From an uncultured Candidatus Saccharibacteria bacterium (GTDB lineage: Bacteria; Patescibacteriota; Minisyncoccia; Minisyncoccales; GWA2-38-27), in NCBI GenBank assembly GCA_964447515.1, contig CAYUSS010000005.1, positions 1 to 62,507 on the forward strand: a DNA stretch of 62,507 nt, read 5' to 3'. Position numbers and translations under genes: made by a program. Below are positions 10,282-62,507 of the stretch, in pieces. The notes below the pieces were generated by a model. The model worked only from the letters and a program-made list of their open reading frames with translations. It was not told the origin of the DNA and did no database searches. The number at the start of each line of letters is the position of its first letter. The first letter of the stretch is position 1.

Positions 10282-10300
10282 AATTCAGATTTTAAAACTA

Positions 10301-13852: not shown

Positions 13853-13872
13853 AAGATAAATGACTTTATTTT

Positions 13873-44051: not shown

Positions 44052-44151
44052 ATTACCCCACCCCGCTACTCACTATTTCTTATGTTTTCTTGACTAAAAA
44101 AACTCTTCAAATTTGTTTGATGAGTATAAAAAGATTGTTTTACCTTTACTG

Positions 44152-44610
44152 CTATAGGTCCTTTTCTGGTCTCAATTGGATCGATTGAGCTGTAATGCTT
44201 CCGTCCTCATTTGCCTTTCCGCTAATTGTAACTGAGTTTCCGACTTCAAGGTCATCTGGAGTTCCGTTTACAAATTTGCCAACTTCAGTATTATTTGAGT
44301 AAAAGATAATTTTTGAACCGCCGTCCCGAAGTTCTATGGTAATGCTTTGGTCATCTTTTGAAATAACCTCTCCAGTGGCAAAACCAGAATCTGTTCGATC
44401 TCCTATTCTTTCGCCAATAAAACCCATACCAGCCACTCCCATTTCTTGAAATCTTTGCTGGCGTTCTTCTGGGGATAAATTACGGAGTTCTTCAAGATCA
44501 CCCCGTGCAAATCCTTGCGAGGTTTTAGTTTGAGCATACTTCATTCCTCCGTAAAACGCTCCCCCACCGATTACAACAAGCACGATAATAATTGGTAATA
44601 ATTTTTTCAT
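44152..44610 (-). CDS. exported hypothetical protein (DUF5666-like OB fold)
   Basis: [11 protein letters not shown] segment, [37 protein letters not shown]. Confidence 0.65.
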
Positions 44611-44665
44611 GTTGATCCTTGTATTATTGAAAACCTTTATTCAATCGCTCGACCAAGCGATTTTT

Positions 44666-45889: not shown

Positions 45890-46599
45890 ACTTTTTTATG
45901 ATTAATTAAACGCTGACGCTGGTTTTTATTATCCTCAACTATAGCGCCATCAATAATATGGATAATTCGGTTGGCATGCTCGGCAACATAACGTTCATGG
46001 GTAATAAGCACAATAGTTCGCTTCTGTTCAGAGTTAAGCTTCTGAAATGTTTCCAAAACAATTTTACCTGTTTTTGTATCGAGGTTACCTGTGGGTTCGT
46101 CAGCCAAAATTAAAGAAGGATTATTAACAAGAGCTCGAGCAATAGCAACTCTTTGCGTTTGCCCGCCAGAGAGCTGATTAGAGAGGTGATGAAAATGAGA
46201 TTCTTCAAAGCCTGCATTCAAAAGAGATTCCCTTACCAACTTCTCTCGTTCCTCTCGTCTAATGCCAACATAAACAAGCGGCAAGACAACATTACGAAGC
46301 ACTGTAGTTCGAGGCAATAAATTAAATGATTGGAAAACAAATCCAATTTTATTTTTTCTAATATCTGCTAACTCATCATCAGAAAGCTGCGAAATATCCT
46401 GACTTGCTAAAAAATAATTTCCATAAGTGGGGGTGTCCAAACATCCTAAAATATGCATTAAGGTGGACTTACCAGAACCAGAAGGACCCATAATAGCTAC
46501 AAACTCACCCTCTTTAATGGTAAAAGAAACGCCTTTGAGCGCCTTAGTTTCTACATTACCGCTCTTATAAATTTTAGTTATATTTTGAACTTCAATCAT
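45886..46599 (-). CDS. ABC transporter ATP-binding protein (MacB/LolD-like)
   Basis: [34 protein letters not shown]. Confidence 0.95.
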
Positions 46600-46603
46600 A
46601 TAC

Positions 46604-48622: not shown

Positions 48623-48633
48623 ATTATTAAGGA

Positions 48634-49155
48634 TTAAAGCAATGGAAATTGAGAACCTTTGTAGGGCATAGGTGAACCTTTTAATTCTCCATTAAAAACG
48701 CGTATCAGCTTAGCTTCGATTTGTCCTTCTTCATTTGGTGAGCCAATAATGACCACGCCATTACCAACCCCCAAGCTATCTTTTACGGTCTCCATCCCTC
48801 TTTTGATTACCGTATCTTCGGTGATTATAACTATTTTCTCTACATCGCCACGACCTTTAATGACAAAACCATTATCTTTAAGCTCAATAATTTCGCCAAA
48901 CGCACCATGACCTTCAATAAATTCTCCAGGCATAGGGGGCATTTTTTGCCAATCGCCAAAAAATCCTCCCCGAGGTCCAGCAAAGTTCTTATGATAGCTT
49001 TCTGCCCAGCGATAAGAAAACTTTGCCTTCATTCCGCCAACAACCATACCTGCACCGAATATCAAAACAACAACTGCAAAACCAACCAAAGCAATAACGA
49101 CCCACTTAAGAGTATCGTGGTTTATTTTTTTATTATATTGTTTTTCTTCATTCAT
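48634..49155 (-). CDS. membrane-anchored hypothetical protein (DUF5666-like)
   Basis: TM helix, WAESYHKNF, HGAFGEII, EAKLIRVF. Confidence 0.65.
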   Translation of the reverse strand: MNEEKQYNKKINHDTLKWVVIALVGFAVVVLIFGAGMVVGGMKAKFSYRWAESYHKNFAGPRGGFFGDWQKMPPMPGEFIEGHGAFGEIIELKDNGFVIKGRGDVEKIVIITEDTVIKRGMETVKDSLGVGNGVVIIGSPNEEGQIEAKLIRVFNGELKGSPMPYKGSQFPLL

Positions 49156-49189
49156 ATATTTTTATTAAAATTAGATTAATAATTATTTA

Positions 49190-49609
49190 TTAAACAAAAC
49201 CCTGCATTAAATAGCCAAGTAGTAATCTCTTTCTGTGTAGAAACAATCTAAGTGTAAAAACAGATACAGCCAGACTCAGCAAAAAAACCATTATGCTTCT
49301 AATTGGTAATGACTCAATAATAGCTAAGCTAAAATCTTGCCAGAGAGCAAAAAATGTCCCCAAATCGCTGATTGCGGTGGAGATAAAATAAGAAATCCCT
49401 GAACTTTCTACTTGATTGACAAGCATCGTCCCAGAAAGAGGAGTGGCAACTAAGGAAACTAATAAGAGAGATAAAAAACCAAACAGTAATCTCTTAGTAT
49501 GCCGTAGTTCCTGTTCTCGCTTAATTGCAAGAATTATCCGATCAAAAAGACCCACAGGCGGTTCTTTGGGTTCAAGATTGGTAAAAAGTTTCTCGTAGTC
49601 TTTACGCAT
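49190..49609 (-). CDS. membrane protein, putative anti-sigma factor
   Basis: EPP..LFDRIILAI followed by TM helices; directly downstream of the ECF sigma. Confidence 0.55.
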   Translation of the reverse strand: MRKDYEKLFTNLEPKEPPVGLFDRIILAIKREQELRHTKRLLFGFLSLLLVSLVATPLSGTMLVNQVESSGISYFISTAISDLGTFFALWQDFSLAIIESLPIRSIMVFLLSLAVSVFTLRLFLHRKRLLLGYLMQGFV

Positions 49610-49679
49610 ATCTCTATTTACTAATACGAAAAAAGGATGCATTTTGGTGCATCCTTTTTTGTTGGTCTTTGAAATAAAT

Positions 49680-50240
49680 TTAGGAGTTGGTGAAGAGTTT
49701 TCTAAGTAAAATAAGAGCTCGCCTATGCCTGCTTTTAATAGTATTCAAAGGCTCTCCCAGAACTTCAGCAATTTCTCTAAAAGTAAAATGATCATTATAT
49801 CGAAGGAATAAGACCATGCGGTTTTTTGGAATCAATTGATTCATCACCGCATTAAGTGTTTCCGTGATGCCAATTCGTTCAAGAATCTCGTTAGGAAGGG
49901 GGGCGGGATTCGCAAGAGTCTCTATAAGTATGTTTTCTCCCTCTTCATTCTCGAAATTAGAAAAAGGTATGGCTTTTTTCTTCCTGAGCCAGTCAATGGA
50001 AGTATTTTTGGCAATACTAAAAATCCAGGTTTTGAAGTTTTTGTTTTGGTCAAATTTTTTCAAGTTCCGCCATACCTTCACAAAAACTTCCTGCGTTATA
50101 TCTTCGGCTTCCTGTTCATCGCCAACATAGCGATAAACAAAGCTATAAATCGGCTTGAGATAGCTCTTTATCAAAGCCTCAAATGCTCCCTCATCACCTG
50201 CGAGATAATCAATTATAAGTTGTTTATCTGAACGATTCAT
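49680..50240 (-). CDS. ECF RNA polymerase sigma factor
   Basis: AEDITQEVFVKVW, FKTWIFSIAKN..ID, region 4 TFREIAEVLGEPLNTIKSR. Confidence 0.93.
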   Translation of the reverse strand: MNRSDKQLIIDYLAGDEGAFEALIKSYLKPIYSFVYRYVGDEQEAEDITQEVFVKVWRNLKKFDQNKNFKTWIFSIAKNTSIDWLRKKKAIPFSNFENEEGENILIETLANPAPLPNEILERIGITETLNAVMNQLIPKNRMVLFLRYNDHFTFREIAEVLGEPLNTIKSRHRRALILLRKLFTNS

Positions 50241-50320
50241 ACTTTATGTAAAATAGCAGATATTTATAAAAAAGTCCATTGTATTATCTTATTTTACCCT
50301 ACCCTTTAACTCACTATTTT

Positions 50321-50566
50321 TCAAGTTTTCTTTCTCAAATAATCGGAAAGCATTCCCAATAATTCTGCGGCAAATCCAACCATTATTCCTGATATAGCTC
50401 CTTTTCCTACGATATACCAATTAAATCCAGAAAATAGGGCGATTATAAAACCAATTATTGCTCCAGCAGTTAACCCGCCCCAAAGAGCATTCCGTCCACG
50501 CCTAAAATATACGGCTAATAAAATGATTGAAATAATGCCAAGTATTATCCAAATGTTGTTAGTCAT
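50321..50566 (-). CDS. small membrane protein
   Basis: 81 aa, three hydrophobic segments. Confidence 0.55.
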   Translation of the reverse strand: MTNNIWIILGIISIILLAVYFRRGRNALWGGLTAGAIIGFIIALFSGFNWYIVGKGAISGIMVGFAAELLGMLSDYLRKKT

Positions 50567-50603
50567 AATTATTATTGGTCTCGCCCGACACTTCGGGTAA
50601 GGT

Positions 50604-53072
50604 TCAGCGATTTAAGACTTTATCAATTGATTTATCAAGTTCTTTTAGTTCGTGTTGGTGTTTCGCCTTAAAGGAAGTGGAAACTTGGATGTGCGAAATA
50701 ATGCTTTTTTGTAAATCCGAATGTCTTTTCGGATTTGGTATTTGGACTTCTTTTATCACATTAAACGAAACGGCGTCTCTAATACTACCAGTAGCCAATA
50801 ACTCTAAATAAAGGCGATAGAAATTATTGCGAAGAATAGAAATAATGTATTGTGGTTCAATTTCTTTCTTCTTTCCATTTTTTACTCTCATAACAACATA
50901 GGCGGGACTAACAAGCATCCCATCTAATTCTTTCGGGACGACTCCTATTGAACCAACATTGATACGATAAGGGTTGTATGCAATGTCTCCAGCCCGAACC
51001 ACTTTATATTTCTGATTGATGTCCTCGCCCAATCTTTCCTCATTAAAAAGCACTAAACCCTCGTTAATAACAGATAGTATTGGATAATACTTTGATGGTT
51101 CTTCACGGGGGTCAATCTTATCTTTAACCTCGTCAACAAAATTACCAAGTTTTACTCTTTCAAACTTCCTTCGTTCCAACTCTCGTCTAAACCAGTAATA
51201 TCTGGCATCGAATCTGTCTTCTAACGAGCCCGAATCAACCACAAAAGACAAGTCTTCGCTGACATTCTTCCCGCTTAAAAATTGTTCCCAGCCCAAGAGA
51301 ACCTTATCTAAATCAGTTTTTTCGCCTTCTTTTATTGTCGGCTTACCATTAGGCTCATATCCAATATCTTTCACAACTCCCATAAAGATTTTGTGAGAGC
51401 GTTTAACTCCGCCCTTTTTCTTTTTTAGAAACAACAAACTGGTATTGATTGTAGGAACTCCGCTCGGAGTAAAGGTATGTGCTGGCAACGAAACAACCCC
51501 GACTATCTGGGCGTTTTCTAAAATAAACTCTCGCACATATCCCATTGATGGATTTCCTAAAACTCCGTCTGGTAAAACTATCCCCATTCTTCCCCCTTCT
51601 TTTAAGTAATCTAAACATCTCTCAATAAATAAAACTTCTGTTCTTTGTTGTTTTCTGCCGTTGGTTTTAGAGCCCAGAAAATAATCTGCTAAATAACGAT
51701 GCTCTTTTTCTGACACACTTGCACCAAAGGGCGGATTGGTAAGCAACAAAGTGTATTTACCCAATTTAATATCTCGGCGGGGATTAAACTTTGATACCAC
51801 ATCAAGAGAATCATTATTTTCTATATTGGAATGACCATCCTCGTGGATAATCATATTCATCATTGCTATTCTCGATAGCTGACTATTTACTTCTACCCCA
51901 TAAAGATTATAAAGAGCAAAATCACTCCACTGGCGTTTTGCATTATCTGGTTCAAACTTCGCTTCAATTTCTTTCCTGACTTTATCTAAAATATAAAGAA
52001 GAAAACCACCGCTTCCGCACGCTGGGTCAATAACCACATCGTCAACGACTGGCTTCATAAAATCTACCATAAACCTAACGACTTCTCGTGGGGTAAAATA
52101 CTGACCCATTTCGCCTCTAAATATCTTTTTAAGAAATGTCTCAAAAGCCCTACCCTTAGAATCCAGCTCGGTTCTTGAAAGAGAAATACCCTGTAATTTT
52201 TCTACCACGCTATAAAGCACTTCATCGCTTAACCTCAATGGTGCTTCGAAAACATCGGGGTCTCTTTGTTGAGCTTTTTGGTAAATGCCACGAACCCTAT
52301 CCGCTACCTCTTTTGCTGTTTCGTGAGTTCCGACTTGAAAATTATAATAATCGCCGATAGGCGTAAGCGTTCGTTCGTCTTTATCTTTACAAAACATTAA
52401 CTTGCTCATTTCATCAAAAGCCTCTGCTGGGTTCATCTTGCCGCCCTGCCAGATAATGTCGTGGCACTGCTGAAGACGAGATTGAAGTTCATACAAATTA
52501 GCTGGTTTCAAATCCCATTCAGGGTCGGCTTTTTTGAACTTAAACTTTACAACTTTCCCATAGCGAATAGGAATGTCAGAGATAATGTTTTTATCTCGCT
52601 CCTGCGGGTCAAAACCAGCTACATCAAAGGCAACCTCAATACTTCCCGCTACCATCATCGCATAGGGGGCTCTTAAAGAGTTTGCGTTCCCGAACGCCTG
52701 CTCAATCGCTTGGGAGATTGCTGACTGCGGTATGCCTTCTTTTTTACACTCCACGACAATATAGGGACGCTTTCTGGCATCGTCTTCATAAATTACAATG
52801 TCGGCAGAATCCGATGGGGTGCGTCTTGGCACAACCACTTCTAAATCAATGCGATTTTCTGGATATTTGTATTTATCAATTAGTTTTACATAAAAAGACG
52901 CCCGCACGATTTCTTCGGGGTCTTGAAAATTATAAGACTTGCCTGTTTTGAGGTAAGTTATTCTGCCATCTTTAATAGAAAGCAGTTTGTTCTTTTCGCC
53001 AAGTGCAATGAGATGCTGAAAGGCGTCAAAAGAATCTTTATGATTTTGATTCTCATTCTTATTTTTAGGCAT
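50604..53072 (-). CDS. fused restriction-modification enzyme (HsdR_N nuclease + N6-adenine MTase + single TRD; type IIG/IIB-like)
   Basis: SADIV..VVECKK nuclease motif, GQYFTPR, DPACGSGG, TNPPFG, C-terminal HsdS-like segment. Confidence 0.85.
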   Translation of the reverse strand: MPKNKNENQNHKDSFDAFQHLIALGEKNKLLSIKDGRITYLKTGKSYNFQDPEEIVRASFYVKLIDKYKYPENRIDLEVVVPRRTPSDSADIVIYEDDARKRPYIVVECKKEGIPQSAISQAIEQAFGNANSLRAPYAMMVAGSIEVAFDVAGFDPQERDKNIISDIPIRYGKVVKFKFKKADPEWDLKPANLYELQSRLQQCHDIIWQGGKMNPAEAFDEMSKLMFCKDKDERTLTPIGDYYNFQVGTHETAKEVADRVRGIYQKAQQRDPDVFEAPLRLSDEVLYSVVEKLQGISLSRTELDSKGRAFETFLKKIFRGEMGQYFTPREVVRFMVDFMKPVVDDVVIDPACGSGGFLLYILDKVRKEIEAKFEPDNAKRQWSDFALYNLYGVEVNSQLSRIAMMNMIIHEDGHSNIENNDSLDVVSKFNPRRDIKLGKYTLLLTNPPFGASVSEKEHRYLADYFLGSKTNGRKQQRTEVLFIERCLDYLKEGGRMGIVLPDGVLGNPSMGYVREFILENAQIVGVVSLPAHTFTPSGVPTINTSLLFLKKKKGGVKRSHKIFMGVVKDIGYEPNGKPTIKEGEKTDLDKVLLGWEQFLSGKNVSEDLSFVVDSGSLEDRFDARYYWFRRELERRKFERVKLGNFVDEVKDKIDPREEPSKYYPILSVINEGLVLFNEERLGEDINQKYKVVRAGDIAYNPYRINVGSIGVVPKELDGMLVSPAYVVMRVKNGKKKEIEPQYIISILRNNFYRLYLELLATGSIRDAVSFNVIKEVQIPNPKRHSDLQKSIISHIQVSTSFKAKHQHELKELDKSIDKVLNR

Positions 53073-53326
53073 AGGTGAACGCTATGTTTCGGCTATCTTC
53101 AAAACAAAAAGGGACAGCCAAGCTGTTCACCCACAACGGTTCGTCCCGAAGGAGTCCCCAATTATGGAACTTGACTGCCCCTTCCTACCCACAATTGGGT
53201 AAAGAGACAGTTCTCCTTCGGAAAAAATCCGTTGTAGGTGAACAATTTTATAGTATCTCATTTTTCTAAAAAAATAAAGTGTTTTAACTTGAAAAATAAC
53301 CAAAAATAAGATAAAATAAGTATAAA

Positions 53327-55135
53327 ATGAGTATGAAAAATGAAAATGTGAAATCAAAAATCAAAAAAGAGCAACTGCTTTCAGAACAGACATTTATCAA
53401 TTATTGCGGTTATGACGAAGCCAACATTCACGGGGGAAGGACAAGCAGGTTAGATATTGACCAAAAATTTATTAAAGCGGCTGAAAAAGATGGTTTTATA
53501 AAACCTTTATTGAAATCAAAGGAATCAGTTAAGCAAAAGGACGGGGATGAAAAGTTGGAAATGGTTAATTATTATAGCCCTTTTCAAATTTATCTTGTTT
53601 TGGAATTATCGAAAAATATAATTGATGAGAATGGCTATCTACGAAGTCCTTCTAACCTTGAGTGGCAAAAAGAAAAAAACTTCAGATGGGTTAACTGGGG
53701 CGGGGGTATGTCCCTAACAATAGATAAGAAAAGGAGATGGGAACGCAACCCGAAGTTTGCGTCTGAAAATCTCCCCTTATTCTGTGATTATTTTCATCGT
53801 TTTCTTGCGTTTATACACACTTTTGAATTAAAAACAGACTATATCAGAGAAATTGAAGAACGCAGGCATTTCTCAAAATTGCCATCAGTTTCTTATAACT
53901 TTGAATCTCTTAAGGACGGGGGCTTAAAATTGCTTAAAAATCATAAATTGGACATAAAAACTCTTAATCTACTTAGAAAGGAAGTGGCACAACTTGCGAC
54001 AATGATTGACCCGCTCGAACATTGGTATTACTACATCAAACGACATACTCAATTTAGAAAAGACCTACTTAAGGGCGATGCGGCGTTGGCACAAGAACTC
54101 TATCGAATCTATGATTTAATAACAATAATTGTAGAGACAATGACTGGAGAAAAATCAGAACCGCTATCTGATTTTTTATATCCAGATATCACCCCCTTCT
54201 TAATACAGAAGGTAAATTATCAAAGTGGAGAAGATGTAAAAGCTCTACAATTTGCTATCCAGCAATTCAAAGAATGGAAAAAGAAAAAAGAAAATAAGCG
54301 TTTTGCCACCAAAGAAATAATGAAAAAATTGAATGCAGTTGAGAAAAAAATAAAAGGCTACGAACAACGATATGGCGATAGAAGTTATGCTGGTAGCGTA
54401 AGGACAATAGAAGCTGAAGAAAATATAAAACTTGATGATTTAGATGAAGAAACCAAAAAAGATGTTAAAGACACGCTCAAACAAATGAAAGAACAAAAAA
54501 TGAAGGTTGAGTTAGGACAAGAAATTTCTCAAGCTATAGAACATAGACTCTCTGAATTAAGGCGTGAATTAGATGGCATCTTCTATGATGTTGGCGGAAA
54601 ACTTCGGGACAGAGAAAATGAGTGGTGGCAAAAAGAACGAAATTTCCATAACATCTTCTGGATGGCTAACCGAGAGAAACTTGCAAAACTTCCAAGAGAA
54701 GAACAATTAAAATTATCCAGAAAAGAATCTGATAAAATTGTCAGGAAGGCGAAGGAGTGGGGACGGCGAGGAGAAGAATTTGCTAATTCCGTCTCAAGAT
54801 ATGCTGACCTTGTTTTTTGTAAGGTTTGTAGAAAAAATCCGATTCAACTCCATATTGAAAATAACAACTTGAATATGTGGGAAGTTTCTCGCTCGGTAAT
54901 CTGTGATGAGTGTATACGGACTAAAAAACTTGAGGAAATGGAATCGGGGGAATGGAAGTGTTCGTGCGGTAAAATTTTATACAAGTTTGTGCATAATAAT
55001 ATCATCGCTCTTAGAACACAAAATAAAGTAGATATTAAGCTCGAAATCGCATATGGAAAAAGTCTATTAGAGGCTACTTGCCCTGAATGCGGCAGAAAAA
55101 ACCAACGAAGAATAGACTGGGGATGGATGCCGTAA
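53327..55135 (+). CDS. large hypothetical protein with C-terminal Cys clusters
   Basis: 602 aa; CKVC, CDEC, CSC, CPEC; no family recognised. Confidence 0.7.
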   Translation: MSMKNENVKSKIKKEQLLSEQTFINYCGYDEANIHGGRTSRLDIDQKFIKAAEKDGFIKPLLKSKESVKQKDGDEKLEMVNYYSPFQIYLVLELSKNIIDENGYLRSPSNLEWQKEKNFRWVNWGGGMSLTIDKKRRWERNPKFASENLPLFCDYFHRFLAFIHTFELKTDYIREIEERRHFSKLPSVSYNFESLKDGGLKLLKNHKLDIKTLNLLRKEVAQLATMIDPLEHWYYYIKRHTQFRKDLLKGDAALAQELYRIYDLITIIVETMTGEKSEPLSDFLYPDITPFLIQKVNYQSGEDVKALQFAIQQFKEWKKKKENKRFATKEIMKKLNAVEKKIKGYEQRYGDRSYAGSVRTIEAEENIKLDDLDEETKKDVKDTLKQMKEQKMKVELGQEISQAIEHRLSELRRELDGIFYDVGGKLRDRENEWWQKERNFHNIFWMANREKLAKLPREEQLKLSRKESDKIVRKAKEWGRRGEEFANSVSRYADLVFCKVCRKNPIQLHIENNNLNMWEVSRSVICDECIRTKKLEEMESGEWKCSCGKILYKFVHNNIIALRTQNKVDIKLEIAYGKSLLEATCPECGRKNQRRIDWGWMP

Positions 55136-55167
55136 TCCCTTTGTCGTCTATTGTTATAGAGAGAATG

Positions 55168-55196
55168 TTGACAGCGGAAAATCAGTTTGCTAAAAT
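55168..55196 (+). promoter_or_regulatory. sigma70 promoter
   Basis: TTGACA-17-TAAAAT. Confidence 0.7.
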
Positions 55197-55256
55197 TAAA
55201 TTAGCTAAAATAAATAACCAGTTAGTTAAGGGCTAACCCAAGTAGCGATAAAAAGG

Positions 55257-55309
55257 GCTACTAATGAATATCCAGTAATCATACTGGGTGTCTGTTAGTA
55301 GCTTTTTTT
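55257..55309 (+). terminator. leader terminator upstream of the sigma2-only gene
   Basis: GCTACTAA/TTAGTAGC outer stem, inner stem, T7 tract. Confidence 0.65.
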
Positions 55310-55350
55310 GTTGCTAATCACTCATATGATTACTGAGAATAAGTAATTGT

Positions 55351-55650
55351 ATGAGAATGCGTTTATTTAATTCAAAATACCAAGATGACATTCTTGGAAA
55401 AGCTAAAACATATAATATCCCAAATATGGAATGGCAAGATGTTGCCCAAGAGTTAGATATAGCTCTCTGGCAAAACTTAGGTAAATTTCAGGGTCGCAAT
55501 AACGCCAGCGAGCGGACTTTTGCGATGAAAGTAATGCGGAATAAAATCATTGACTTGGCTAAATCCGCAAACCGAAAGAAAAGATTGATTGACAGCTACC
55601 ATCTTTCGCTCGATGAGCTGATGGAGCGAGAGTTCGCCAGCAGTTATTAA
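55351..55650 (+). CDS. sigma-70 region 2-only protein
   Basis: QDVAQE...LW...KF....ERTFA...MRNKIIDL...NRKKR (SigH/ComX-like region 2); ends before any region 4 HTH. Confidence 0.7.
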   Translation: MRMRLFNSKYQDDILGKAKTYNIPNMEWQDVAQELDIALWQNLGKFQGRNNASERTFAMKVMRNKIIDLAKSANRKKRLIDSYHLSLDELMEREFASSY

Positions 55651-55724
55651 GGATTTGTCGTCTATTGTATTAGAAGGATAAATTAAAAAATTAAAGGTAG
55701 CTAAGGGCTACCCCAGATAGCAAT

Positions 55725-55787
55725 AAAAAGGGCTATCAATACTACTCTGCGATTTTTTCGTGGGGTGTTATTGATAGTCCTTTTTTT
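55725..55787 (+). terminator. second leader terminator upstream of the replication operon
   Basis: AAAAAGGGCTATCAATA/TATTGATAGTCCTTTTT stem plus T tract. Confidence 0.65.
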
Positions 55788-55824
55788 CATTAACGCCCAG
55801 TCGCAGAGACTGGGCGTTTTTATT

Positions 55825-56109
55825 ATGGCTAAAACAAAAACAACCAAACAAGATGGCAGATACTTCCGCATTTCAAGTTTTTATGTGGCGGCTTTCTTAT
55901 TCGCCAAAGGATTGGAGCTGGTGAATGTAGATAAAATCACCGACCCAAAAAGAGCACAGTTTGTTTTTAGAGATTCACCAGAACGAGAAATTTTAGTAAA
56001 AAGCTACAACTTTGCTAAAGAAGACTCGCCAGAAGCGATGATAGATGCCCGTAAGTTTGTAATGGCAATAAAAATGCTAAAAGACAAACTTTATCAAGAT
56101 AAGTTTTAA
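55825..56109 (+). CDS. DUF5659-like small DNA-binding protein
   Basis: SSFYVAAFLFAKG.EL..VD, RAQFVF. Start set at MAKTK. Confidence 0.65.
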   Translation: MAKTKTTKQDGRYFRISSFYVAAFLFAKGLELVNVDKITDPKRAQFVFRDSPEREILVKSYNFAKEDSPEAMIDARKFVMAIKMLKDKLYQDKF

Positions 56110-56111
56110 TT

Positions 56112-56297
56112 ATGGTCAGCCAACAGCTTATTGAAGAACTAAAAATAATCATCAAAGAAGATTATGGAAAAGACTTAGAAATAAAAGAGGTTTCCCAAAT
56201 TGCAAATAATTTAGTGGGCTATTTTAACCTGTTGGCGAAAATTTACCATCAAATGAAAACTCACAATAATGAGGATAACGAAAACACAAACAACTGA
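56112..56297 (+). CDS. small hypothetical protein
   Basis: 61 aa helical ORF coupled to its neighbours. Confidence 0.6.
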   Translation: MVSQQLIEELKIIIKEDYGKDLEIKEVSQIANNLVGYFNLLAKIYHQMKTHNNEDNENTNN

Positions 56298-56910
56298 AGA
56301 ATTTGATTGGGAGTTTTGGAATTGTATTTGGGATTTAGAAAAGGAATGGAAGGCTTCCCTGCCGAGATTTACTGACAAGGAATTGCTGGAGATATTTCCA
56401 GAAGCAAAACAGATTATTCCAGAAAAAATAAAAGAATGGGAACGAAAAAGGGCTGAGTTTTCGGACACCATAAAAAAGAAGCTAACGCTAATCAAATACA
56501 AAATCACAGATGAATTTTCCCAGTGGTTCTGGCGGGAGTGGGTCAAGGTCAATGAGGGTCAGGAGCTTCTAAAAGTTGATGGACATATAGCACGGCTCAA
56601 AAGATTGTTTGCTGTGGCACGGGGGTGGGGGTCAAAAGGCAGAATTACTGAAGAAAAGATACAACAAGCCCTACACACACCAATTGAAAATATCGCTAAT
56701 CAACATCTTAAACTTTACAAAAGTGGCAGAGCATTAGTCGGACCTTGCCCCTTTCATCCTGAAAAACGCCCATCGTTCTTCATTTATCCAGAAACAAATA
56801 GTTGCTGGTGCTACGGGTGCAATCAGGGCGGAGATATTATTAACTTCGTGAGATTGCTTCACGGCTATTCCTTTAAGGAAGCAGTAAACTATCTCATTGG
56901 AGAAAAATGA
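56269..56910 (+). CDS. CHC2 zinc-finger (DnaG N-terminal-like) protein
   Basis: GPCPFHPEKRPSF, WCYGC..GGDII.FV. Confidence 0.88.
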   Translation: MRITKTQTTEEFDWEFWNCIWDLEKEWKASLPRFTDKELLEIFPEAKQIIPEKIKEWERKRAEFSDTIKKKLTLIKYKITDEFSQWFWREWVKVNEGQELLKVDGHIARLKRLFAVARGWGSKGRITEEKIQQALHTPIENIANQHLKLYKSGRALVGPCPFHPEKRPSFFIYPETNSCWCYGCNQGGDIINFVRLLHGYSFKEAVNYLIGEK

Positions 56911-58250
56911 ATATGAGCATAGATAATCACAAAGACCAAATTTTAGAACAAAAAGTCCAAGAAATTGAAAAAACTATCCCAGAAAAAATAGATACATCTC
57001 AATTTAAGTTAATTTCTTCTCAAGAGCTGATTGAAATACTTGGACTAACAATCAAAAAAGATGAGGAGAATAAACTAATAACCTTTTTATGCGAACTCTC
57101 GGCTTACACTGAAGATTCGCAGTTCAACATTAGCTTCAATGCTCCATCCTCAACTGGAAAATCCTATATCCCGACAGAGATTGCTCGATTATTCCCAGAA
57201 GAAGATGTAATTGAGATTGGCTATTGCTCCCCAACTGCTTTCTTCCACGATATTGGGGAGTATCAAAAAGAAAAAAATGGATACATAGTTGACTTGTCCA
57301 GAAAGGTTTTAATCTTTCTTGACCAGCCCCACACCCAGCTTTTGGAACGGCTAAGACCTTTGCTCTCCCACGATAAAAAGGAAATCAGTTTGAAAATTAC
57401 AGACAAGACTCAGAAATACGGGCTCAAAACCAAAAATGTTTTATTAAAAGGTTATCCTGCGGTAATTTTCTGCACAGCTGGTCTAAAAATTGATGAACAG
57501 GAAGCGACACGATTTCTGCTTTTAAGCCCAGAGACAAACCAAGAAAAAATCAGAGAAGCAATCCACGAAAAAATCAAAAAAGAAACTGACGCTGACACCT
57601 ACCAAAAATGGCTGGATAGCAAACCAGAAAGGAAAATCTTAAAAGAGAGAATAAAAGCAATAAACCAAGAAAATATCAGAGAGATAAAAATAGCTTCGCC
57701 AGAGAAAATTGAAGAAAGATTCTTTAAGAAAAACAAAATGCTCAAGCCCAGACACTCAAGAGATATAGGACGGCTTATCTCGCTAATTAAATCATTCGCT
57801 TTGCTTAATTTATGGTTTAGGGAACGGAATGGTTCAGCCATCATAGCGAACGATGAAGACATTGAAGGGGCTTTCAAAATTTGGGACGCCATCTCTGAAA
57901 GCCAAGAACTTAACCTACCGCCCTATATTTACCACCTCTATCACGAAGTTATCTTAACTGCTTGGAATGACAAAAATAAAAACAGGGCTGAAGACTTTGA
58001 AGAAATAACTGGAGAACTGGGCTTAACCCGCCAAGATATAATTCAAAAACATTATCAGGTTTATGGACGATTTATAGCCGACTGGCAATTACGACAGCAA
58101 ATCATTCCAATGCTGGAAACTGCGGGTCTAATAATGCAGGAGCAAGACCCGTCAGATAAGCGAAAAATGTTAATTTACCCTACCGCCTCGTTCACTATCT
58201 CTAAAGGACAAAACAATAGTGAGTTGAAGGGTGGGGTAAATAAAATATGA
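56907..58250 (+). CDS. P-loop NTPase (replication helicase-like) with C-terminal winged helix
   Basis: Walker A-like APSSTGKS, Walker B-like LIFLDQ, EQEATRF. Confidence 0.72.
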   Translation: MNMSIDNHKDQILEQKVQEIEKTIPEKIDTSQFKLISSQELIEILGLTIKKDEENKLITFLCELSAYTEDSQFNISFNAPSSTGKSYIPTEIARLFPEEDVIEIGYCSPTAFFHDIGEYQKEKNGYIVDLSRKVLIFLDQPHTQLLERLRPLLSHDKKEISLKITDKTQKYGLKTKNVLLKGYPAVIFCTAGLKIDEQEATRFLLLSPETNQEKIREAIHEKIKKETDADTYQKWLDSKPERKILKERIKAINQENIREIKIASPEKIEERFFKKNKMLKPRHSRDIGRLISLIKSFALLNLWFRERNGSAIIANDEDIEGAFKIWDAISESQELNLPPYIYHLYHEVILTAWNDKNKNRAEDFEEITGELGLTRQDIIQKHYQVYGRFIADWQLRQQIIPMLETAGLIMQEQDPSDKRKMLIYPTASFTISKGQNNSELKGGVNKI

Positions 58251-58771
58251 CTACAGAAAAACAAGTAAAAGCCAATAGAGAAAATGCCAAAAAGGGCGGA
58301 GTGAAAACGCCCGAAGGTAAAGCTATTGTCCGATATAACGCCCTAAAACACGGATTGCTGAGCAAAGAGGTATTATTGGGCAATGAGGAAGAAAAAGACC
58401 TTGTGGGGCTTTGTAGGCGATTAAAAACCGAATTAAAACCAGCTTCAGAGATTGAGCAAGTTCTGGTTGATAGAATTATAGCCAATTTCTGGAGATTAAG
58501 GCGAGCTATGCGAGTAGAACGAGAAATGATAGAGGATGACTGCAAAGATGAAGATTGGAAAGGAAATATCAAACAAAAAACTCTTGGAGAAGCATTTAGT
58601 TATGATTTTACGAATGCTGACACTTATGGAAAACTTATCCGCTACGAAACCAGTATCGAAAGAGGTATTTATAAGGCTTTGCACGAATTACAAAGAATTC
58701 AATCAGCCCGCAGAGGAGAAAAACCCCCTGCCCCGTTAGCTGTAGATGTGGATATTTCAACTGATAAATAA
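58247..58771 (+). CDS. hypothetical protein, TerS-like N-terminus
   Basis: ANRENAKKGGVKTPEGK...NALKHGL motif, LIRYETSIER. Confidence 0.6.
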   Translation: MTTEKQVKANRENAKKGGVKTPEGKAIVRYNALKHGLLSKEVLLGNEEEKDLVGLCRRLKTELKPASEIEQVLVDRIIANFWRLRRAMRVEREMIEDDCKDEDWKGNIKQKTLGEAFSYDFTNADTYGKLIRYETSIERGIYKALHELQRIQSARRGEKPPAPLAVDVDISTDK

Positions 58772-58920
58772 AATGGGTTTGTTCCGTAAAAGAGTTAGGT
58801 TTTGTTAGGTTTTCAAAAATTACCAAAAAGTGCTTATTTTAAGCTAAAATGAAGTGTCTAAACACTTAAAATATGGTTATAAATGTTTAATGATTTCGGT
58901 AATTTTTTGGAAAAAATTTT

Positions 58921-59517
58921 ATGGGAAGATGGAGTTTTTCAAGTAAACAAGAAGCTGATTATCTTAAAAAGGTAGAAATGTGGTGGCTCAAGAAATACGG
59001 CTATCTTAATGGTTGGAAATCTGGCGGGATTGAATGGAAAAGTGGATTTTCAGACGAGAAAAGTAGTATAGGAATTGAGGTCTGCACAATAGAGAATTAT
59101 ATCCGCTTTTTCTATACTCAAACAGAACAAAACGGCGAGAAAAAGAATTTTGATTATAAGGTGCAACTAACTACCACTCCTTGTAATTACGGCGGGGTAA
59201 GATACTGGTTTATATGCCCGCTTGTAAAGAATGGTCAACCCTGCCATAGACGGGTAGGAGTGCTTTATAAAGCAGGAGATTACTTCGGCTGTCGGCATTG
59301 CTATGACCTGACCTACAGCTCCAAAAATGAGAATCGTAGATATAAAAGCTATCCTTTATTCTTCTGGCTTAAAAGCTGGAAAAAAATTGAGGAATTGGAA
59401 GAAAAGATAAAAAGACCATATTATAGAGGTAAGCCCACACGCACACAAAGAAGATTGGAAAAAATTGAAAACCGAATGATACCTTACCTTGACTTGGTAA
59501 AGAAAGATGGATTATAA
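58921..59517 (+). CDS. conserved mobile-element hypothetical protein with Zn ribbon
   Basis: TTPCNYGGVRYWFICP, CHRRVGVLY, GCRHCYDLTYSS. Confidence 0.7.
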   Translation: MGRWSFSSKQEADYLKKVEMWWLKKYGYLNGWKSGGIEWKSGFSDEKSSIGIEVCTIENYIRFFYTQTEQNGEKKNFDYKVQLTTTPCNYGGVRYWFICPLVKNGQPCHRRVGVLYKAGDYFGCRHCYDLTYSSKNENRRYKSYPLFFWLKSWKKIEELEEKIKRPYYRGKPTRTQRRLEKIENRMIPYLDLVKKDGL

Positions 59518-59648
59518 TGAAAATGTAGCCCAATGTTGCAAATCCACCCGTGAGATTTTTAATGGCTTCCGCCTTTGAAGGGGCGGTCTGCCAGAAGCCA
59601 ACCCTCACGGGAAAGCAACTGGGCTACCAGACCGTCCCTTTGAGTTAT

Positions 59649-61235
59649 ATGAAAAATCTTACAAAAGCAGTAATATACTGCCGTGTGTCATCAAGAGAAC
59701 AGGAAGAAACTGGTTATTCTCTCCCAGCTCAAGAGAAGTTTTTGAGGGATTATGCCCAAAAGAATGGCTTTGGAGTTGCTAAAGTTTTTGCGGTATCAGA
59801 ATCAGCTGGCGGGAAAGTGAGACGAAAAATCTTTAACGAGATGATGGATTACATAAGGAAAAACAAGATTGCGATTGTTATTGTAGAAACCACTGACCGC
59901 TTAACAAGAAACTTCGCCGATGTGCCAATAATTGACGCTTGGGTTCTGGAAAACGAAACTCATCAAATTCATTTAGCCAAAGAAGGATGTATATTGCACA
60001 AAAACTCTAAGTCGCACGAATGGTTTATGTGGCGAGTTAAAGTGGCTACTGCCGAATACTATGTAAGACTGCTTTCTGAGAATGTGAAAAAAGGACAGAA
60101 AGAAAAACTTGCACAAGGATGGCTACCAACTAGACCGCCTCTTGGATATAAAACAATCGGCGAAAAAGGACATAAAACCCATATCATAGATGAGGCGAAA
60201 GCTCCAATGGTTAGAAAAATGTTTGAGTTATATTCCACTGGCAATTACTCGCTTAACGCTTTGGTAAAAGTTATGTATCAAGAAGGATTAAGGAATGAGA
60301 ATAATAGAATTGTTGGCAGAAGCAGAATACACGAGTTGCTTTCTGACCCGTTTTATTACGGCGAGAACCGATGGAAAGGAGAGATTTCCGCTGGACAGCA
60401 AGAAATCCTAATCTCTAAGGAGTTATTTGATAAGGTGCAGGAGAAACTTACCCGAAAAATTAACAGTCCTCAATATAAAAAACATTTGCCAGTGTTTAAG
60501 GCAAAGATTAAATGCGAGGAATGCGGCGGAACTATAACTTGGGAAATTCAACGAGGTCATTGGTATGGACATTGCAATCATTACAAAAATTGCTCCCAGA
60601 AAACTTGGTTAAGACAAGAAAAAGCAGAAGAACAACTATTCCCGCTTTTTGACAAAGTAGCACCTAAAAACGAAAGGATTATAAAGTGGCTGGAAAAGGC
60701 ATTAAAAGAAAGCCATACTGGCGAAATTGATTATAACACCAAACAAAGGGAAGAACTTAACAGAATAATCAAAATGGCTGACGAAAGAATGGAAAAAGCA
60801 TACCGAGATAAATTGGATAGCAAAGCTCCTGCAATTCTTTGCGAAAAAATAATAGCTGATTCTGATAAAGAGAAAAAAGATGCCTTAGAATCTCTAAATA
60901 AATTAGGCGAGACCAGAATAAAGTATTACGAAGCTGGCTACGCTATCCACGAGCTCGCTCTGCACGCCAAAGAGATATACCAAAGCGTAAAAGCCAAGAC
61001 AGAAGACAAAAGACTGCTTTTGAGCCAAGTATTTTCGAACTTAAGCCTAAATGAAGGAAATATAAAGCCAAATTACACTCTGGCGTTCGAATTTCTATCA
61101 AAATGGATGCCTTTAGTGAATAATACTTTCGAACAGCCAAAAATAGGGCAAAATAAACGGAAAACGGACGATTTGGCGTCCGTTTGTCCTGAAATGCTCC
61201 GGCGGCAGGATTCGAACCCCTCTCGGTCGCCCTAG
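59649..61235 (+). CDS. large serine recombinase (resolvase + recombinase + Zn ribbon)
   Basis: AVIYCRVSS, YSLPAQ, DRLTRN, PPLGY, CEECG. Start set at MKNL (59649). Confidence 0.93.
   Translation: MKNLTKAVIYCRVSSREQEETGYSLPAQEKFLRDYAQKNGFGVAKVFAVSESAGGKVRRKIFNEMMDYIRKNKIAIVIVETTDRLTRNFADVPIIDAWVLENETHQIHLAKEGCILHKNSKSHEWFMWRVKVATAEYYVRLLSENVKKGQKEKLAQGWLPTRPPLGYKTIGEKGHKTHIIDEAKAPMVRKMFELYSTGNYSLNALVKVMYQEGLRNENNRIVGRSRIHELLSDPFYYGENRWKGEISAGQQEILISKELFDKVQEKLTRKINSPQYKKHLPVFKAKIKCEECGGTITWEIQRGHWYGHCNHYKNCSQKTWLRQEKAEEQLFPLFDKVAPKNERIIKWLEKALKESHTGEIDYNTKQREELNRIIKMADERMEKAYRDKLDSKAPAILCEKIIADSDKEKKDALESLNKLGETRIKYYEAGYAIHELALHAKEIYQSVKAKTEDKRLLLSQVFSNLSLNEGNIKPNYTLAFEFLSKWMPLVNNTFEQPKIGQNKRKTDDLASVCPEMLRRQDSNPSRSP
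61195..61218 (-). other. tRNA 3'-end fragment, putative att core (tRNA-Gln-like)
   Basis: Minus strand GGTTCGAATCCTGCCGCCGGAGCA = T-loop, 3' T-stem, acceptor strand and G73; no 5' half present. Confidence 0.7.
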
Positions 61236-61356
61236 TGCTATGGGCGGTTCAGTCACTTGAACTAACCACAGCATCACTTCCCTTAGTAGACAATGTTTGT
61301 TTAGTAGAGTCTTCGGTATAGAAAAATCTTTTATAATTCCATATAGCGTTTACTTT

Positions 61357-62507
61357 TCAAAAAATTGAAATTATTCTCCAAGCTAAACCAGCAAATAAAA
61401 GACCATAAACTATTGATGATGCTGTTAAAGCTATTGCTTTTTTAATTCCGAATTCTTTAATAAGCATTCCCAAAGCAATTATGCATGGGATTCCGATTGT
61501 AGAAACTACACCAAATGTATAAATTTGGAGAGAAGTCAGAGTTAAAGATATTTTACTGCCCAAAACTGATAAAAGCATCGCTCCAGTTAAATCTTTTTGC
61601 AAAAATCCAAATGCCAAAGGGATAACAATCACAGCAGGCAATCCTAGCCAAGTAGTGATTGGCGAAAGAGGTTCTACTACAATGTTGGTAAGACCTAATA
61701 TATCCAAAATTCCATAAGCTATTCCTCCAATTACCAATAGAGGCATAACTATATATACAAAATCTTTCATTCTAACCCAGCTTTTAGCAAGAACATTTTT
61801 AACCAAAGGCTTTCTATAAGGGGGTAATTCTAAAAGTAAAGGTTCACTTTTTATATGAATAACTTTTTTTATCCCAAAAGCCCAGATCAAACCAGCAATT
61901 AATAAAGTAGCAAAAACAGAAAAAGCCAGCTTTATGCCTCCATAAAATCCAACTATCCCCATTATTATAGCAATTCTTGAGGAACAAGGTACAAAAGCAA
62001 ATAAAGAAGCAGTATGAAATTGCTCTTTTTTAGATGACAAGACCCTGGTAGCTCTAGTTGCTGGTGCAGTACAACCAAAGCCTAATGCTAAAGGAATAAA
62101 TGATTTTCCGGGTAAACCTAATTTTTTAAGAAATCTTTCTGCATTAACAATAAATCTTGAAAGAAGCCCTATATCCTCTAACAAACCTAAAAGCAAATAA
62201 AACAAGAAAACATAAGGCAGGGCAATGGAAACACCTGCTACAAGTCCGGTTAAACCTTGAACTAATATCATAGCAATAAGAGAGTGTTCCGCTATGCCAA
62301 AAGAAGATAAAAAGCTTTCTGTCAATCCCATAAGAATGCCTTGTATTGAATTGCCAAGATATAACAATGCCCCAAAGATAGCAAGAAGAAATAAAATAGT
62401 AGTAAACGGGCCCCAAGTTTTATGTAAGAGAATTTGGTCAATTTTCTCTTCAAATTTTTTTTCTTTTTCTACAGGAACTATTTGAGTAACTTTTTCTGCT
62501 ATAAATG
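61357..62507 (-). CDS. feoB: FeoB-like ferrous iron transporter, C-terminal part (5' end beyond the window)
   Basis: Frame stays open to the window edge (DQILLHKTWG); LEDIG, GKSFIPLALGFGCTAPA, PCSSR, LLLELPPYR. Confidence 0.85.
   Translation of the reverse strand, partial: FIAEKVTQIVPVEKEKKFEEKIDQILLHKTWGPFTTILFLLAIFGALLYLGNSIQGILMGLTESFLSSFGIAEHSLIAMILVQGLTGLVAGVSIALPYVFLFYLLLGLLEDIGLLSRFIVNAERFLKKLGLPGKSFIPLALGFGCTAPATRATRVLSSKKEQFHTASLFAFVPCSSRIAIIMGIVGFYGGIKLAFSVFATLLIAGLIWAFGIKKVIHIKSEPLLLELPPYRKPLVKNVLAKSWVRMKDFVYIVMPLLVIGGIAYGILDILGLTNIVVEPLSPITTWLGLPAVIVIPLAFGFLQKDLTGAMLLSVLGSKISLTLTSLQIYTFGVVSTIGIPCIIALGMLIKEFGIKKAIALTASSIVYGLLFAGLAWRIISIF

Follow-up and report, generated by a model that had tools for sequence, protein, structure and literature searches.

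Integration at the 3' ends of tRNA genes is usually associated with tyrosine integrases, and in bacteria of the candidate phyla radiation (CPR), which have tiny genomes and are mostly uncultured, few mobile elements have to our knowledge been described. We analyzed a 62,507-nt contig of an uncultured Candidatus Saccharibacteria bacterium (GenBank assembly GCA_964447515.1, contig CAYUSS010000005.1; called the window below) and found in it a probable site-specific integrative element of 17.2 kb, lying at ~43948–61199 and belonging to a very large family whose members come mostly from CPR/Patescibacteria. We put the probability of this reading at about 0.75, and the same figure applies to its closer description as a self-replicating, plasmid-like integrative cargo element that resembles the tycheposons. 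The concept is an ordinary one; notable are the tRNA-aimed serine integrase with a readable mimic of its target in attP, the open reading frame (ORF) running across the attachment (att) site, the combination of Toprim domain and MCM-like protein, and the very wide distribution. The family is apparently undescribed, as no account of it, of DUF5659 or of tRNA-associated large serine recombinase (LSR) elements in CPR bacteria was found in the literature that could be searched, itself incomplete.

Among described systems the tycheposons of Prochlorococcus come closest, and 910 of 937 tycheposon-type elements use tyrosine recombinases (bioRxiv 10.1101/2020.12.28.424599). Like the present family, they target tRNA 3' ends, combine an integrase with primase/helicase and variable cargo modules, leave partial tRNAs, build up side by side at one tRNA and live in a streamlined host without classical transfer systems; a subset of them is suspected of being satellite-like. 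The differences concern the machinery. Tycheposons show long blocks of identity, whereas the present element has an LSR, a core of 4–6 nt and attP/attB half-sites; its recombinase ORF crosses the att site, its hosts are CPR bacteria and members of other phyla, and its family joins a Toprim domain (or a zinc finger) to an AAA+ domain whose fold matches are MCM-like, which is not among the combinations listed for tycheposons. The element works alike, yet it stands outside the tRNA-associated tyrosine recombinase clade of Prochlorococcus; 27 Prochlorococcus elements bear an LSR as well.

In its recombination the element is closer to phage serine integrases such as those of A118/LI, Bxb1 and phiC31, with which it shares the order of Resolvase, Recombinase and zinc-ribbon domains, a short core and quasi-palindromic att sites (PMC3783163). 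In serine integrases the zinc-ribbon-domain motif lies at positions 16–24 of the attP half-sites and 5 bp nearer the centre in attB (PMC3783163); the same shift of the distal motif is seen here, and a separate directionality factor is expected for excision in both. Unlike the phage systems, the present family targets tRNA 3' ends with at least 10 specificities, leaves the tRNA intact while giving it a new terminator, has a P' arm in attP that mimics the tRNA, and places the integrase stop codon beyond the crossover, and its carrier is not a phage.

We defined both ends of the element by comparison with homologous relatives (Table 1; related loci and contigs are cited by L-numbers). On the left the end lies at 43948–43980: the stretch 43948–44080 aligns with 1626–1771 of L001 and with 726–849 of L002, the latter being the defined left end of the L002 element. 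Its first letters, TGCTCGCTTGGCGGGACAGCTTTCGAAC, are a degenerate version of the tRNA end that is present, in reverse complement, at the right junction (TGCTCCGGCGGCAGGATTCGAACC). The two ends share only TGCTC, the core copies being 17,247 bp apart, and long direct repeats in the style of tyrosine-integrase elements were not found at the ends; the equivalent of the core is TTGCTC at both junctions of L001 and GCTCCG at those of L002. An earlier reading made from the letters alone (the initial annotation) had correctly described the ORFs of 50604–61235 and their order, including the restriction-modification (RM) fusion as cargo, the CHC2 protein without Toprim, the NALKHGL protein and the serine recombinase. 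Its left border at 50604 had to be moved, as the homologous left end shows that the element includes 44152–50566. Two candidates for this end were rejected: cores of the type CTCCG/GCTCC near 50293 were dropped, the true left end being 6 kb further left, and a 29-nt motif at 50293 is unrelated as a P' arm to the right arm and recurs downstream of each of the cargo blocks and at the end of the AAA+ gene.

The borders were directly readable in L002–L007, because a near-identical 13.5-kb element, 99–100% identical over 729–14262, occurs there in at least three different flanks. On the right it stops at the very 3' end of tRNA-Asn. Between L002 and L007 there is one substitution in the 3' acceptor strand of the tRNA, and pairing with the 5' strand of each host is kept; this co-variation indicates that the tRNA is host DNA and that the crossover falls at its last few bases. 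The genomic contexts of three homologues of the 447-aa replication protein have the same architecture as the window. In one of them, L001 (protein 93% identical), the recombinase gene extends into a complete tRNA-Asn(GTT) at 14306–14378, and similarity to the window ends exactly at 61218; in L009 it runs 28 nt into a tRNA-Lys.

In the window, the recombinase frame likewise crosses attR, with its last 12 codons and stop made of the tRNA fragment and neighbouring DNA. With its stop codon past the crossover, the recombinase has a tail that differs between the two states of the element: as read from the sequence, ...PEML is followed by 12 residues in the integrated form and would be followed by 33 different residues in the circular form. 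The initial annotation had taken the last codons of the recombinase for a tRNA 3' end. The ORF does end in tRNA-derived DNA, but only the last 22 nt of tRNA-Asn are present, and no gene. The sequence GGTTCGAATCCTGCCGCCGGAG comprises the T-loop, the 3' strand of the T-stem and the 3' acceptor strand, and it is unique in the window, with 0 occurrences expected by chance. ARAGORN and Rfam found no tRNA gene at 61197–61218, even at E<=10. We also considered whether 61197–61290 might be an unusual but complete tRNA, one with an intron, or a tmRNA, and rejected the idea: neither Rfam nor ARAGORN gave a match, the 5' strand of the T-stem is unpaired, and the stretch folds no better than its shuffles (z-score –0.1). 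Twelve nucleotides past the tRNA fragment ends a minus-strand intrinsic-terminator hairpin (61185–61162, terminator scan). In L001 and L002, the intact tRNA is likewise followed by a hairpin that belongs to the element, and the terminator brought by the element replaces that of the tRNA itself.

The recombinase matches PF00239 (1.3e-21), PF07508 (1.4e-13) and the integrase family phrog_95 (1e-68); the match to PF13408 (0.0046) is below the cutoff of that family. It carries the motif YCRVSSREQ at its N terminus and its catalytic serine motif is intact. Judging by homology to the start region of L002, translation probably begins at ATG 59649 and not at GTG 59550. An exact-protein look-up returned no record for the recombinase or for the 447-aa protein.

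The two att arms were compared in eight delimited elements, using local alignment and hand counts of the distance from the shared core to the T-loop GAAC(C) in the tRNA arm and to GAAC in the left arm. The left-arm motif lay 5 bp further out in all eight: at 21 against 16 in the window, L001 and L002 (Asn), at 20 against 15 in L016 (Gln) and L074 (His), at 19 against 14 in L028 (Ser), at 18 against 13 in L054 (Asp), and at 15 against 10 in L092 (Trp). This +5 offset is the known mark by which attP is distinguished from attB in serine integrases. The P' arm accordingly imitates, in degenerate form, the reverse complement of the tRNA 3' end, with GAAC set 5 bp further from the core: the first 4–10 nt past the core copy the specific tRNA, and the distal part, GGAC.A.GTTAGAAC, is common to the left arms. 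On the host side, the bottom strand of the B arm has TTCGA at 14–18 from the core, mirroring the T-loop TTCGA at 13–17, which makes attB a quasi-palindrome. A hairpin with a T-run (43893–43920) lies just to the left of this arm.

Unoccupied homologous sites supported the same borders. B-arm-like sequence directly abuts the tRNA-Asn 3' fragment in L106, L107, L098, L095 and L103, and the joined flanks of the element (left to 43952 plus right from 61200) form uninterrupted sequence in the metagenome contigs L106, L107 and L098, the match in L106 extending through the upstream terminator. L110 is 91.5% identical to 61195–62507, yet it has other DNA left of the site and lacks the element. The site is therefore polymorphic between related strains; these empty sites are homologous ones from related strains and not from the identical strain, and the borders rest on homology. 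Read depth along the contig was ~9x across 43000–61200 and 26–72x to the right. Because of the intact recombinase, the attL and attR arms with their 5-bp offset, the varied flanks, the unoccupied homologous sites and the variable cargo, we consider the identification as an integrative element well supported by the sequences compared. The initial annotation had proposed a satellite or integrative element, and of the two the integrative part stood, on the evidence of recombinase, att arms and flanks; the satellite part found no terminase, phage or IMG/VR match.

The family was surveyed in 80 loci from species-representative genomes. An LSR was present in 55, of which 36 had a minus-strand tRNA at the ORF stop, and in 35 of these 36 the recombinase ORF overlapped the tRNA 3' end, by 12–180 nt. 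Ten target specificities were found: Gln, His, Trp, Asn, Asp, Ser, Lys, Glu, Gly and Arg. Five further loci seemed to have no tRNA, as ARAGORN reported none because a group I intron splits the anticodon loop (Rfam Intron_gpI, 51–98 bits). The closest relatives of the element were mostly in metagenome-assembled genomes of Patescibacteria. Homologues of the 447-aa protein number more than 2,700 (counted as clusters at 90% identity) and are 73–96% identical to it; the protein occurs in at least 159 species-level genomes, mostly CPR. Collecting homologous elements across CPR, a check that had been proposed at the outset, thus defined conserved ends, on the left in L001 and L002 and on the right at tRNAs. 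In Planctomycetota, the same replication gene is found in elements with a tyrosine integrase, an AlpA-like helix-turn-helix (HTH) protein and an adjoining tRNA-Thr. The AAA+/Toprim gene of L008/L019 (a Planctomycetota single-cell genome), L052, L053 and L067 is ~70–80% identical and shares its element with a tyrosine integrase; L008 also has an adjoining HTH_17 (AlpA-like) gene and tRNA-Thr, and its cargo comprises a PglX-like methylase and SNF2/PLD proteins. Elements with different types of integrase and from different phyla thus have the replication module in common.

Table 1. Features of the element, its attachment sites and its surroundings. Positions are those of the window unless a locus is named.
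Feature	Position	Strand	Remarks
Host-side B arm, 'X'	43917–43951	.	Hairpin GCTCGGT-CTCTCGA-ACCGAGC, then CACTACCC; outside the element
Left core copy TGCTC, attL crossover region	43948–43952	.	Same 5 nt at 61195–61199
P' arm of attL	43952–43980	+	CGCTTGGCGGGACAGCTTTCGAACAT; aligned with left ends of L001 and L002
Conserved motif, copy 1	44054–44077	+	TACCCCACCCCGCTACTCACTATT; ~100 nt inside the left end; same position in L001 and L002
Cargo operon A	44152–50240	-	ORFs and Pfam on same-strain contig L010; between left arm and motif copy 2
DUF5666 protein	44152–44610	-	Cargo operon A
MacB/FtsX permease	44666–45889	-	Cargo operon A
ABC ATPase	45886–46599	-	Cargo operon A
YknX/HlyD-like adaptor	46604–48622	-	Cargo operon A
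173-aa protein	48634–49155	-	Cargo operon A
150-aa membrane protein	49190–49642	-	Cargo operon A; anti-sigma position
ECF-type sigma factor	49680–50240	-	Cargo operon A
Conserved motif, copy 2	50295–50318	+	3' of cargo operon B
Cargo operon B	50321–53072	-	81-aa membrane protein and RM fusion
81-aa membrane protein	50321–50566	-	Cargo operon B
822-aa RM fusion	50604–53072	-	Pfam, NCBIfam, PADLOC
602-aa protein	53327–55135	+	C-terminal CxxC clusters; variable 'big protein' slot upstream of replication module
Putative regulatory region	55220–55785	+	Repeats, hairpin, sigma-like gene
99-aa protein	55351–55650	+	Sigma-70 region 2 only; Sigma70_r2, E 8e-11
DUF5659 protein	55825–56109	+	Pfam DUF5659, E 5e-13
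61-aa protein	56112–56297	+	ORF call
213-aa protein	56269–56910	+	N-terminal domain and DnaG-type CHC2 zinc-binding domain; Zn_ribbon_DnaG, E 5e-21
447-aa AAA+ ATPase	56907–58250	+	C-terminal winged helix; Walker A APSSTGKS; AlphaFold pLDDT 75
Inverted motif pair	58174–58202, 58212–58240	+, -	Within last 25 codons of the AAA+ gene
174-aa helical protein	58247–58771	+	N-terminal motif GGVKT.EGK....NALKHGL, invariant
198-aa protein	58921–59517	+	Cys-rich, zinc-ribbon-like; directly upstream of recombinase
Large serine recombinase	59649–61235	+	528 aa from ATG 59649 (probable start); Resolvase, Recombinase, Zn_ribbon_recom
P arm of attR with right core TGCTC	61162–61199	-	Core at 61195–61199; terminator scan
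B' arm	61197–61218	-	GGTTCGAATCCTGCCGCCGGAG; last 22 nt of tRNA-Asn, T-loop to discriminator
Rest of ~80-nt att-like module, then left arm	61219–61310	.	Y 61219–61246, X' to 61278; outside the element
Intron-split target tRNAs	L006 14280–14617; L044 13676–13917; L059 13623–13885; L083 13677–13856; L024 14542–14843	-	Group I intron in anticodon loop

The element is divided into a left half of minus-strand cargo and a right half holding a conserved plus-strand module in the order DUF5659 protein, 61-aa protein, primase part, AAA+ protein, 174-aa protein, 198-aa protein and recombinase. The DUF5659 gene, which probably starts at 55825 (in the same-strain contig L011 it is annotated with 94 aa), and the 61-aa gene form a pair that precedes the primase/helicase gene and keeps this place in most of the 80 related loci. 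In most relatives, the AAA+ part makes up the C-terminal two-thirds of a ~725-aa protein whose N terminus matches the T7 gp4/DnaG primase domain in a profile search (E 8e-8) and contains Toprim Pfam families. In the window, the place of the fused Toprim domain is taken by the separate 213-aa protein, in which TIGR01391 was matched at positions 3–87 only, along with phage primase PHROGs. Many of the fused homologues are tagged PF27228 MTBMA_p00010_2nd, a Pfam name that points to a Methanothermobacter plasmid protein, and plasmid-database relatives of the AAA+ protein were only distant CHC2/Toprim proteins of 23–27% identity. The AAA+ protein remained 62–91% identical while the GC content of its gene followed that of the host, from 0.31 to 0.54; as identity is kept despite this drift, it reflects strong constraint rather than only recent spread.

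The initial annotation had called this part of the module primase/helicase-like. When the model of the 447-aa protein was compared with the Protein Data Bank (PDB) by Foldseek, MCM was the best match (E 5e-6, probability 1.0), with a template modeling (TM) score of only 0.37–0.42, and RuvB, ORC/Cdc6 and poxvirus D5 followed. At the sequence level the protein matched neither MCM nor any family, and the MCM N-terminal domain is absent; the C-terminal winged helix gave a weak HTH_27/MarR signal. We regard the protein as a putative replicative helicase or initiator, going by its predicted fold. Compared with P4 alpha, T7 gp4 and the MCM-like proteins of archaeal cryptic elements, it follows the same plan of a DnaG-type zinc finger or Toprim domain, a hexameric-type NTPase and a winged helix, joined in one polypeptide or in two adjacent ones, with repeated binding sites (here candidate ones) both next to the gene and at a distance. 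In P4, ori and crr are such gene-adjacent and distant sites. The NTPase, however, is neither of the DnaB/RecA type (gp4) nor clearly of superfamily 3 (P4 alpha), its best fold matches being MCM, ORC and RuvB; it is without the MCM N-terminal domain, has DQ at the expected Walker B position and, in the variant of the window, has lost Toprim.

Candidate binding sites were found in a motif of 24–29 nt, TACCCYACCC....ACTCACTATT, with three exact pattern matches in the window and 0 expected. These lie at 44054, at 50295 and, inverted, at 58215; the direct copy at 58174, which forms an inverted pair with the last, is weaker. Copy 2 is 97% identical to 3095–3125 of L001 amid otherwise unalignable DNA, L001 and L002 hold the same set of copies, and the inverted pair is at the same place in nearly all related loci. 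The AAA+ residues encoded across the pair (428–447) are predicted to be disordered, with a predicted local distance difference test (pLDDT) score <50. The position and conservation of the inverted pair suggest a candidate origin or initiator-binding site, and the plus-strand copies in the cargo half would be additional binding sites.

Two small genes lie between the AAA+ gene and the recombinase. The 198-aa protein has 1,427 homologues and invariant cysteines at 88, 99, 108, 124 and 127, and it is without a Pfam domain; PDB and profile searches with it gave nothing usable, only 1wy6_A at E 0.0066. The 174-aa protein has 1,569 homologues, none with a Pfam domain, and its AlphaFold-type model (pLDDT 79) is a helical bundle with a long coiled coil. 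Among 43 LSR-type relatives, the 198-aa gene was present in 32 and the 174-aa gene in 19, compared with two of nine loci without LSR that carry either. Because they are commoner in LSR loci, the proteins may serve the recombinase, and one or the other may be its recombination directionality factor.

Taken as a cycle, the module would work as follows. The recombinase and a directionality factor, perhaps the 198-aa or the 174-aa protein, would excise the element as a circle; the circle would replicate like a small plasmid, starting at the inverted motif conserved in the last codons of the AAA+ gene, to which the winged helix would bind; and it would re-integrate wherever a tRNA end matches. Genes for packaging or conjugation were not found in the element.

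Several observations weigh against this reading. The first is the product itself: neither a circle nor an exact empty site was seen in the assembled contigs of eight metagenome runs, and as assembled contigs drop rare forms, missing excision products are a weak negative. Runs X1–X8 come from salt-marsh samples. The predicted circle junction is ...CCTGAAATGCTCGCTTGGCGG... and the predicted empty site ...CACTACCCTGCTCCGGCGGCAGG...; the predicted attP junction strings were also absent from IMG/VR, so the search for a circular junction that the initial annotation had suggested came out negative. The sole joint found, in one contig each of runs X9 and X12, connects 43977 to 61195 without shared bases and at depths of 5.6 and 4.5, about equal to that of the element. 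It differs from the product of conservative excision and may be a deletion scar or an independent unit of the array described below. Second, the right-hand target is a tRNA fragment within an att-like array. Third, the subfamily of the window lacks the Toprim catalytic domain: of the zinc-binding and Toprim domains that make up a DnaG/T7 gp4-type primase, the window copy has only the former, and self-priming is putative; Toprim is present in the fused relatives, and the family as a whole counts as such a primase, whereas this copy does not. Finally, at the expected Walker B position (hhhhDE) all 39 aligned members have LDQPH (residues 135–142), with Glu replaced by Gln, and this DQ leaves helicase activity uncertain.

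Some of these points would also fit an island that no longer moves, or an integrative mobilizable element (IME) moved by conjugation. The fragmentary target tRNA, the missing Toprim domain, the unseen excision product and a cargo made up mostly of RM systems and nucleases, as in defence islands, speak for such an explanation. Yet no damage is seen in the recombinase, either att arm or the core, the site is polymorphic between related strains, and the Toprim-less variant is not a one-off decay product, because it is conserved at 85–96% identity in many contigs. Transfer as an integrative and conjugative element or as an IME would call for genes that were not found: among the top 25 families per scan, which is the extent of our Pfam and PHROG surveys (25 of 31 for Pfam in the eight relatives), no relaxase, coupling protein or type IV secretion system (T4SS) family was matched in the element or the eight delimited relatives, and neither were capsid, portal, terminase or tail families. 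The initial annotation had been right in noting the lack of capsid, tail, relaxase and T4SS genes. We consider both variants of this explanation very improbable.

The absence of virion genes bears equally on an origin as a decayed prophage that lost its structural genes. The integrase does match a phage family, phrog_95, and the zinc-finger protein matches phage primases. However, the same compact architecture of 10–17 kb, without capsid, portal, terminase or tail genes, recurs in dozens of genomes across phyla, an outcome that decay would not yield, and the identical 13.5-kb copy is found in at least three contexts. Moreover, no relative was found in the phage or IMG/VR collections and the homologues never lie within full prophages. 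This alternative, which had been raised at the outset, is effectively refuted.

A phage satellite required closer consideration. On this account, the element would be excised on infection by an unknown CPR phage, replicate with its own primase/helicase, use the 174-aa protein as small terminase subunit (TerS) to enter helper capsids, and defend the host with the RM fusion. Like the phage-inducible chromosomal islands (PICIs) and the PICI-like elements (PLEs), it is a small island with an integrase, its own replication initiator or primase-helicase (the pri-rep module by which satellites are recognized) and anti-phage cargo, without structural or transfer genes or a full virion gene set; PLE satellites reportedly use an LSR as well, and helper capsids would supply the exit route from the cell that is otherwise missing. 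The TerS reading of the 174-aa protein had been based on its NALKHGL motif. The motif is real, and the top sub-threshold fold matches of the model in BFVD were repeatedly annotated 'terminase small subunit' or COG3747, but these had E 0.018–1, TM 0.25–0.41 and a root-mean-square deviation of 7–15 A, none reaching E 0.001. The model had no fold match in the PDB (Foldseek best E 0.76), and a profile search of the PDB likewise gave none. Terminase families of Pfam and PHROGs were unmatched by any of 44 members of the 174-aa family at E<=10, NCBIfam gave no terminase match, and fewer than half of the LSR-type relatives have the gene at all.

Nor did the phage side yield a counterpart. Searches of 50,697 phage genomes (INPHARED) by tblastn with the 174-aa and AAA+ proteins found nothing, IMG/VR held neither a relative of the AAA+ protein nor the attP junction strings, and no Sid/Psu/Delta, Ppi, Cpm, TerS or capsid family was seen by Pfam or PHROG in the element or its eight relatives. 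The element thus differs from PLEs and PICIs in having no recognizable genes for packaging redirection or capsids, no known helper phage, no homologues in phage collections and no marker families; with PLEs it shares nothing detectable beyond the LSR. Of three outcomes that the initial annotation had named as speaking against a satellite, two were obtained, whereas the third, homologues lying always within full prophages, is the opposite of what was found. A satellite is possible, but we hold it to be unlikely and unsupported by these searches; the 174-aa protein is not demonstrably a TerS, and the label should not be applied.

The plasmid-like integrative element remains our preferred reading, and its cargo is what differs between relatives, consisting mostly of RM systems and nucleases. 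Among the cargo and uncharacterized proteins of the eight delimited relatives, the matches were to RM enzymes, nucleases, a subtilase, hydrolases and TPR proteins. The two cargo compartments of L002 travel together, being 99–100% identical in at least three contexts. In the window, operon A combines efflux-type genes with an extracytoplasmic function (ECF) sigma factor, and a look-up with this flanking sigma factor retrieved only same-strain contigs, which carry the element. The RM fusion of operon B joins a PD-(D/E)xK-type HSDR_N_2 nuclease, an N6-adenine methyltransferase (N6_Mtase) and a specificity-like C terminus; its best NCBIfam match was MAD2 (297 bits, below the cutoff of 720), and its gene is 79% identical in DNA to that of L001. 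The 'big protein' slot is filled in every relative by a protein of 392–729 aa, only the C-terminal parts of which are related, and the 602-aa protein of the window had no match in Pfam, PHROGs, NCBIfam, PADLOC or the PDB. Residues 16–79 of the 213-aa protein (56314–56505) resemble residues 440–500 of the 602-aa protein (54644–54826), with 31% identity over 64 aa and E 5e-4, and the two regions may share a domain.

Two observations concern the cargo of relatives. In ResIII-type proteins of L016 (1459–4044) and L002 (1976–4528), the C-terminal ~90 residues match phrog_218, 'head closure', at E 6.5e-8; this is the end domain of a restriction helicase-like protein and not a virion gene. In an L002-type element, L006, Rfam identified a LOOT RNA at 6701–6832 on the minus strand (71 bits against a gathering score of 46), between the genes for a methyltransferase and for a 75-aa protein, and nothing equivalent was seen in the window.

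Between the cargo and the replication module, a 46-nt direct repeat (55220–55265 and 55695–55740, 83% identical) lies upstream of the sigma-like and the DUF5659 genes, and a hairpin with 28-nt arms (55725–55785) just before the DUF5659 start. We take them for probable operator or promoter elements of the module; a promoter-like TTGACA-17-TAAAAT is at 55168–55196. The 99-aa protein encoded there is 81–82% conserved in L024 and L025. As region 4 is missing, it cannot be a complete sigma factor; from its domain content, it may be a decoy or a regulator that binds RNA polymerase.

Beyond the right end, the tRNA fragment forms part of an att-like module of ~80 nt that consists of the last 22 nt of tRNA-Asn, CCTCTCGGTCGCCCTA... 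and a hairpin ending in ...CAC.AGC.TGCT (61197–61278). In a metagenome scan, the 61218/61219 junction was present in 18 contigs (L095–L112). The module can be tandem, as in L103, which has three of them, and in L097, which has two as well as a real tRNA-Asn, and what follows it is usually a left arm of this element family. An arm of this kind, TCCCTTAGTAGACAATGTTTG, starts in the window at 61279 with a degenerate distal motif and is followed by a FeoB-like ORF at 61357–62367 on the minus strand (Pfam Gate/FeoB_C); the arm would be that of a second element or its remnant, and the ORF its first minus-strand gene. In L110 (8511–9420), two modules flank a 0.85-kb cassette with no integrase between them, which gives it an integron-like look; the cassette encodes a desulfoferrodoxin (8594–8971) and a rubrerythrin-like protein (8980–9261).

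The modules would be readable as side-by-side accretion at one tRNA locus, with the element of the window at an outer, attB-like site. We offer only tentatively, as a doubtful extension, the idea that elements and tandem modules together make up a serine-integrase system of gene accretion at tRNA 3' ends, a CPR counterpart of tycheposon islands and integrons. If so, each insertion would leave a site able to accept the next element, the integrases would form a natural series with targets readable from the tRNA mimic in their own attP, and the system would be a main route by which defence, efflux and stress genes enter reduced CPR genomes and cross phyla.

For the integrative element itself the consequences are more immediate. 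Its attB is predictable, the left arm being the tRNA end with a 5-bp insertion, and the family offers a testable set of new candidate attP/attB pairs with at least 10 tRNA specificities, of practical interest for integrase-based genome engineering. As elements of this type carry restriction, nuclease, efflux and stress genes, they also offer a way into the study of horizontal transfer and of defence against phages in CPR bacteria.

Some features of the window lie far from the element. A GC peak at 3312–4031 (0.50 against ~0.35) corresponds to an ORF for a secreted-looking protein of 239 aa and not to an RNA gene, with no Rfam match at E<=0.01. Positions 1–986 hold a fragment of a bacterial 16S rRNA gene on the minus strand (model positions 1–896), and a tRNA-Thr(TGT) is located at 1266–1338, ~280 nt upstream of it on the same strand.

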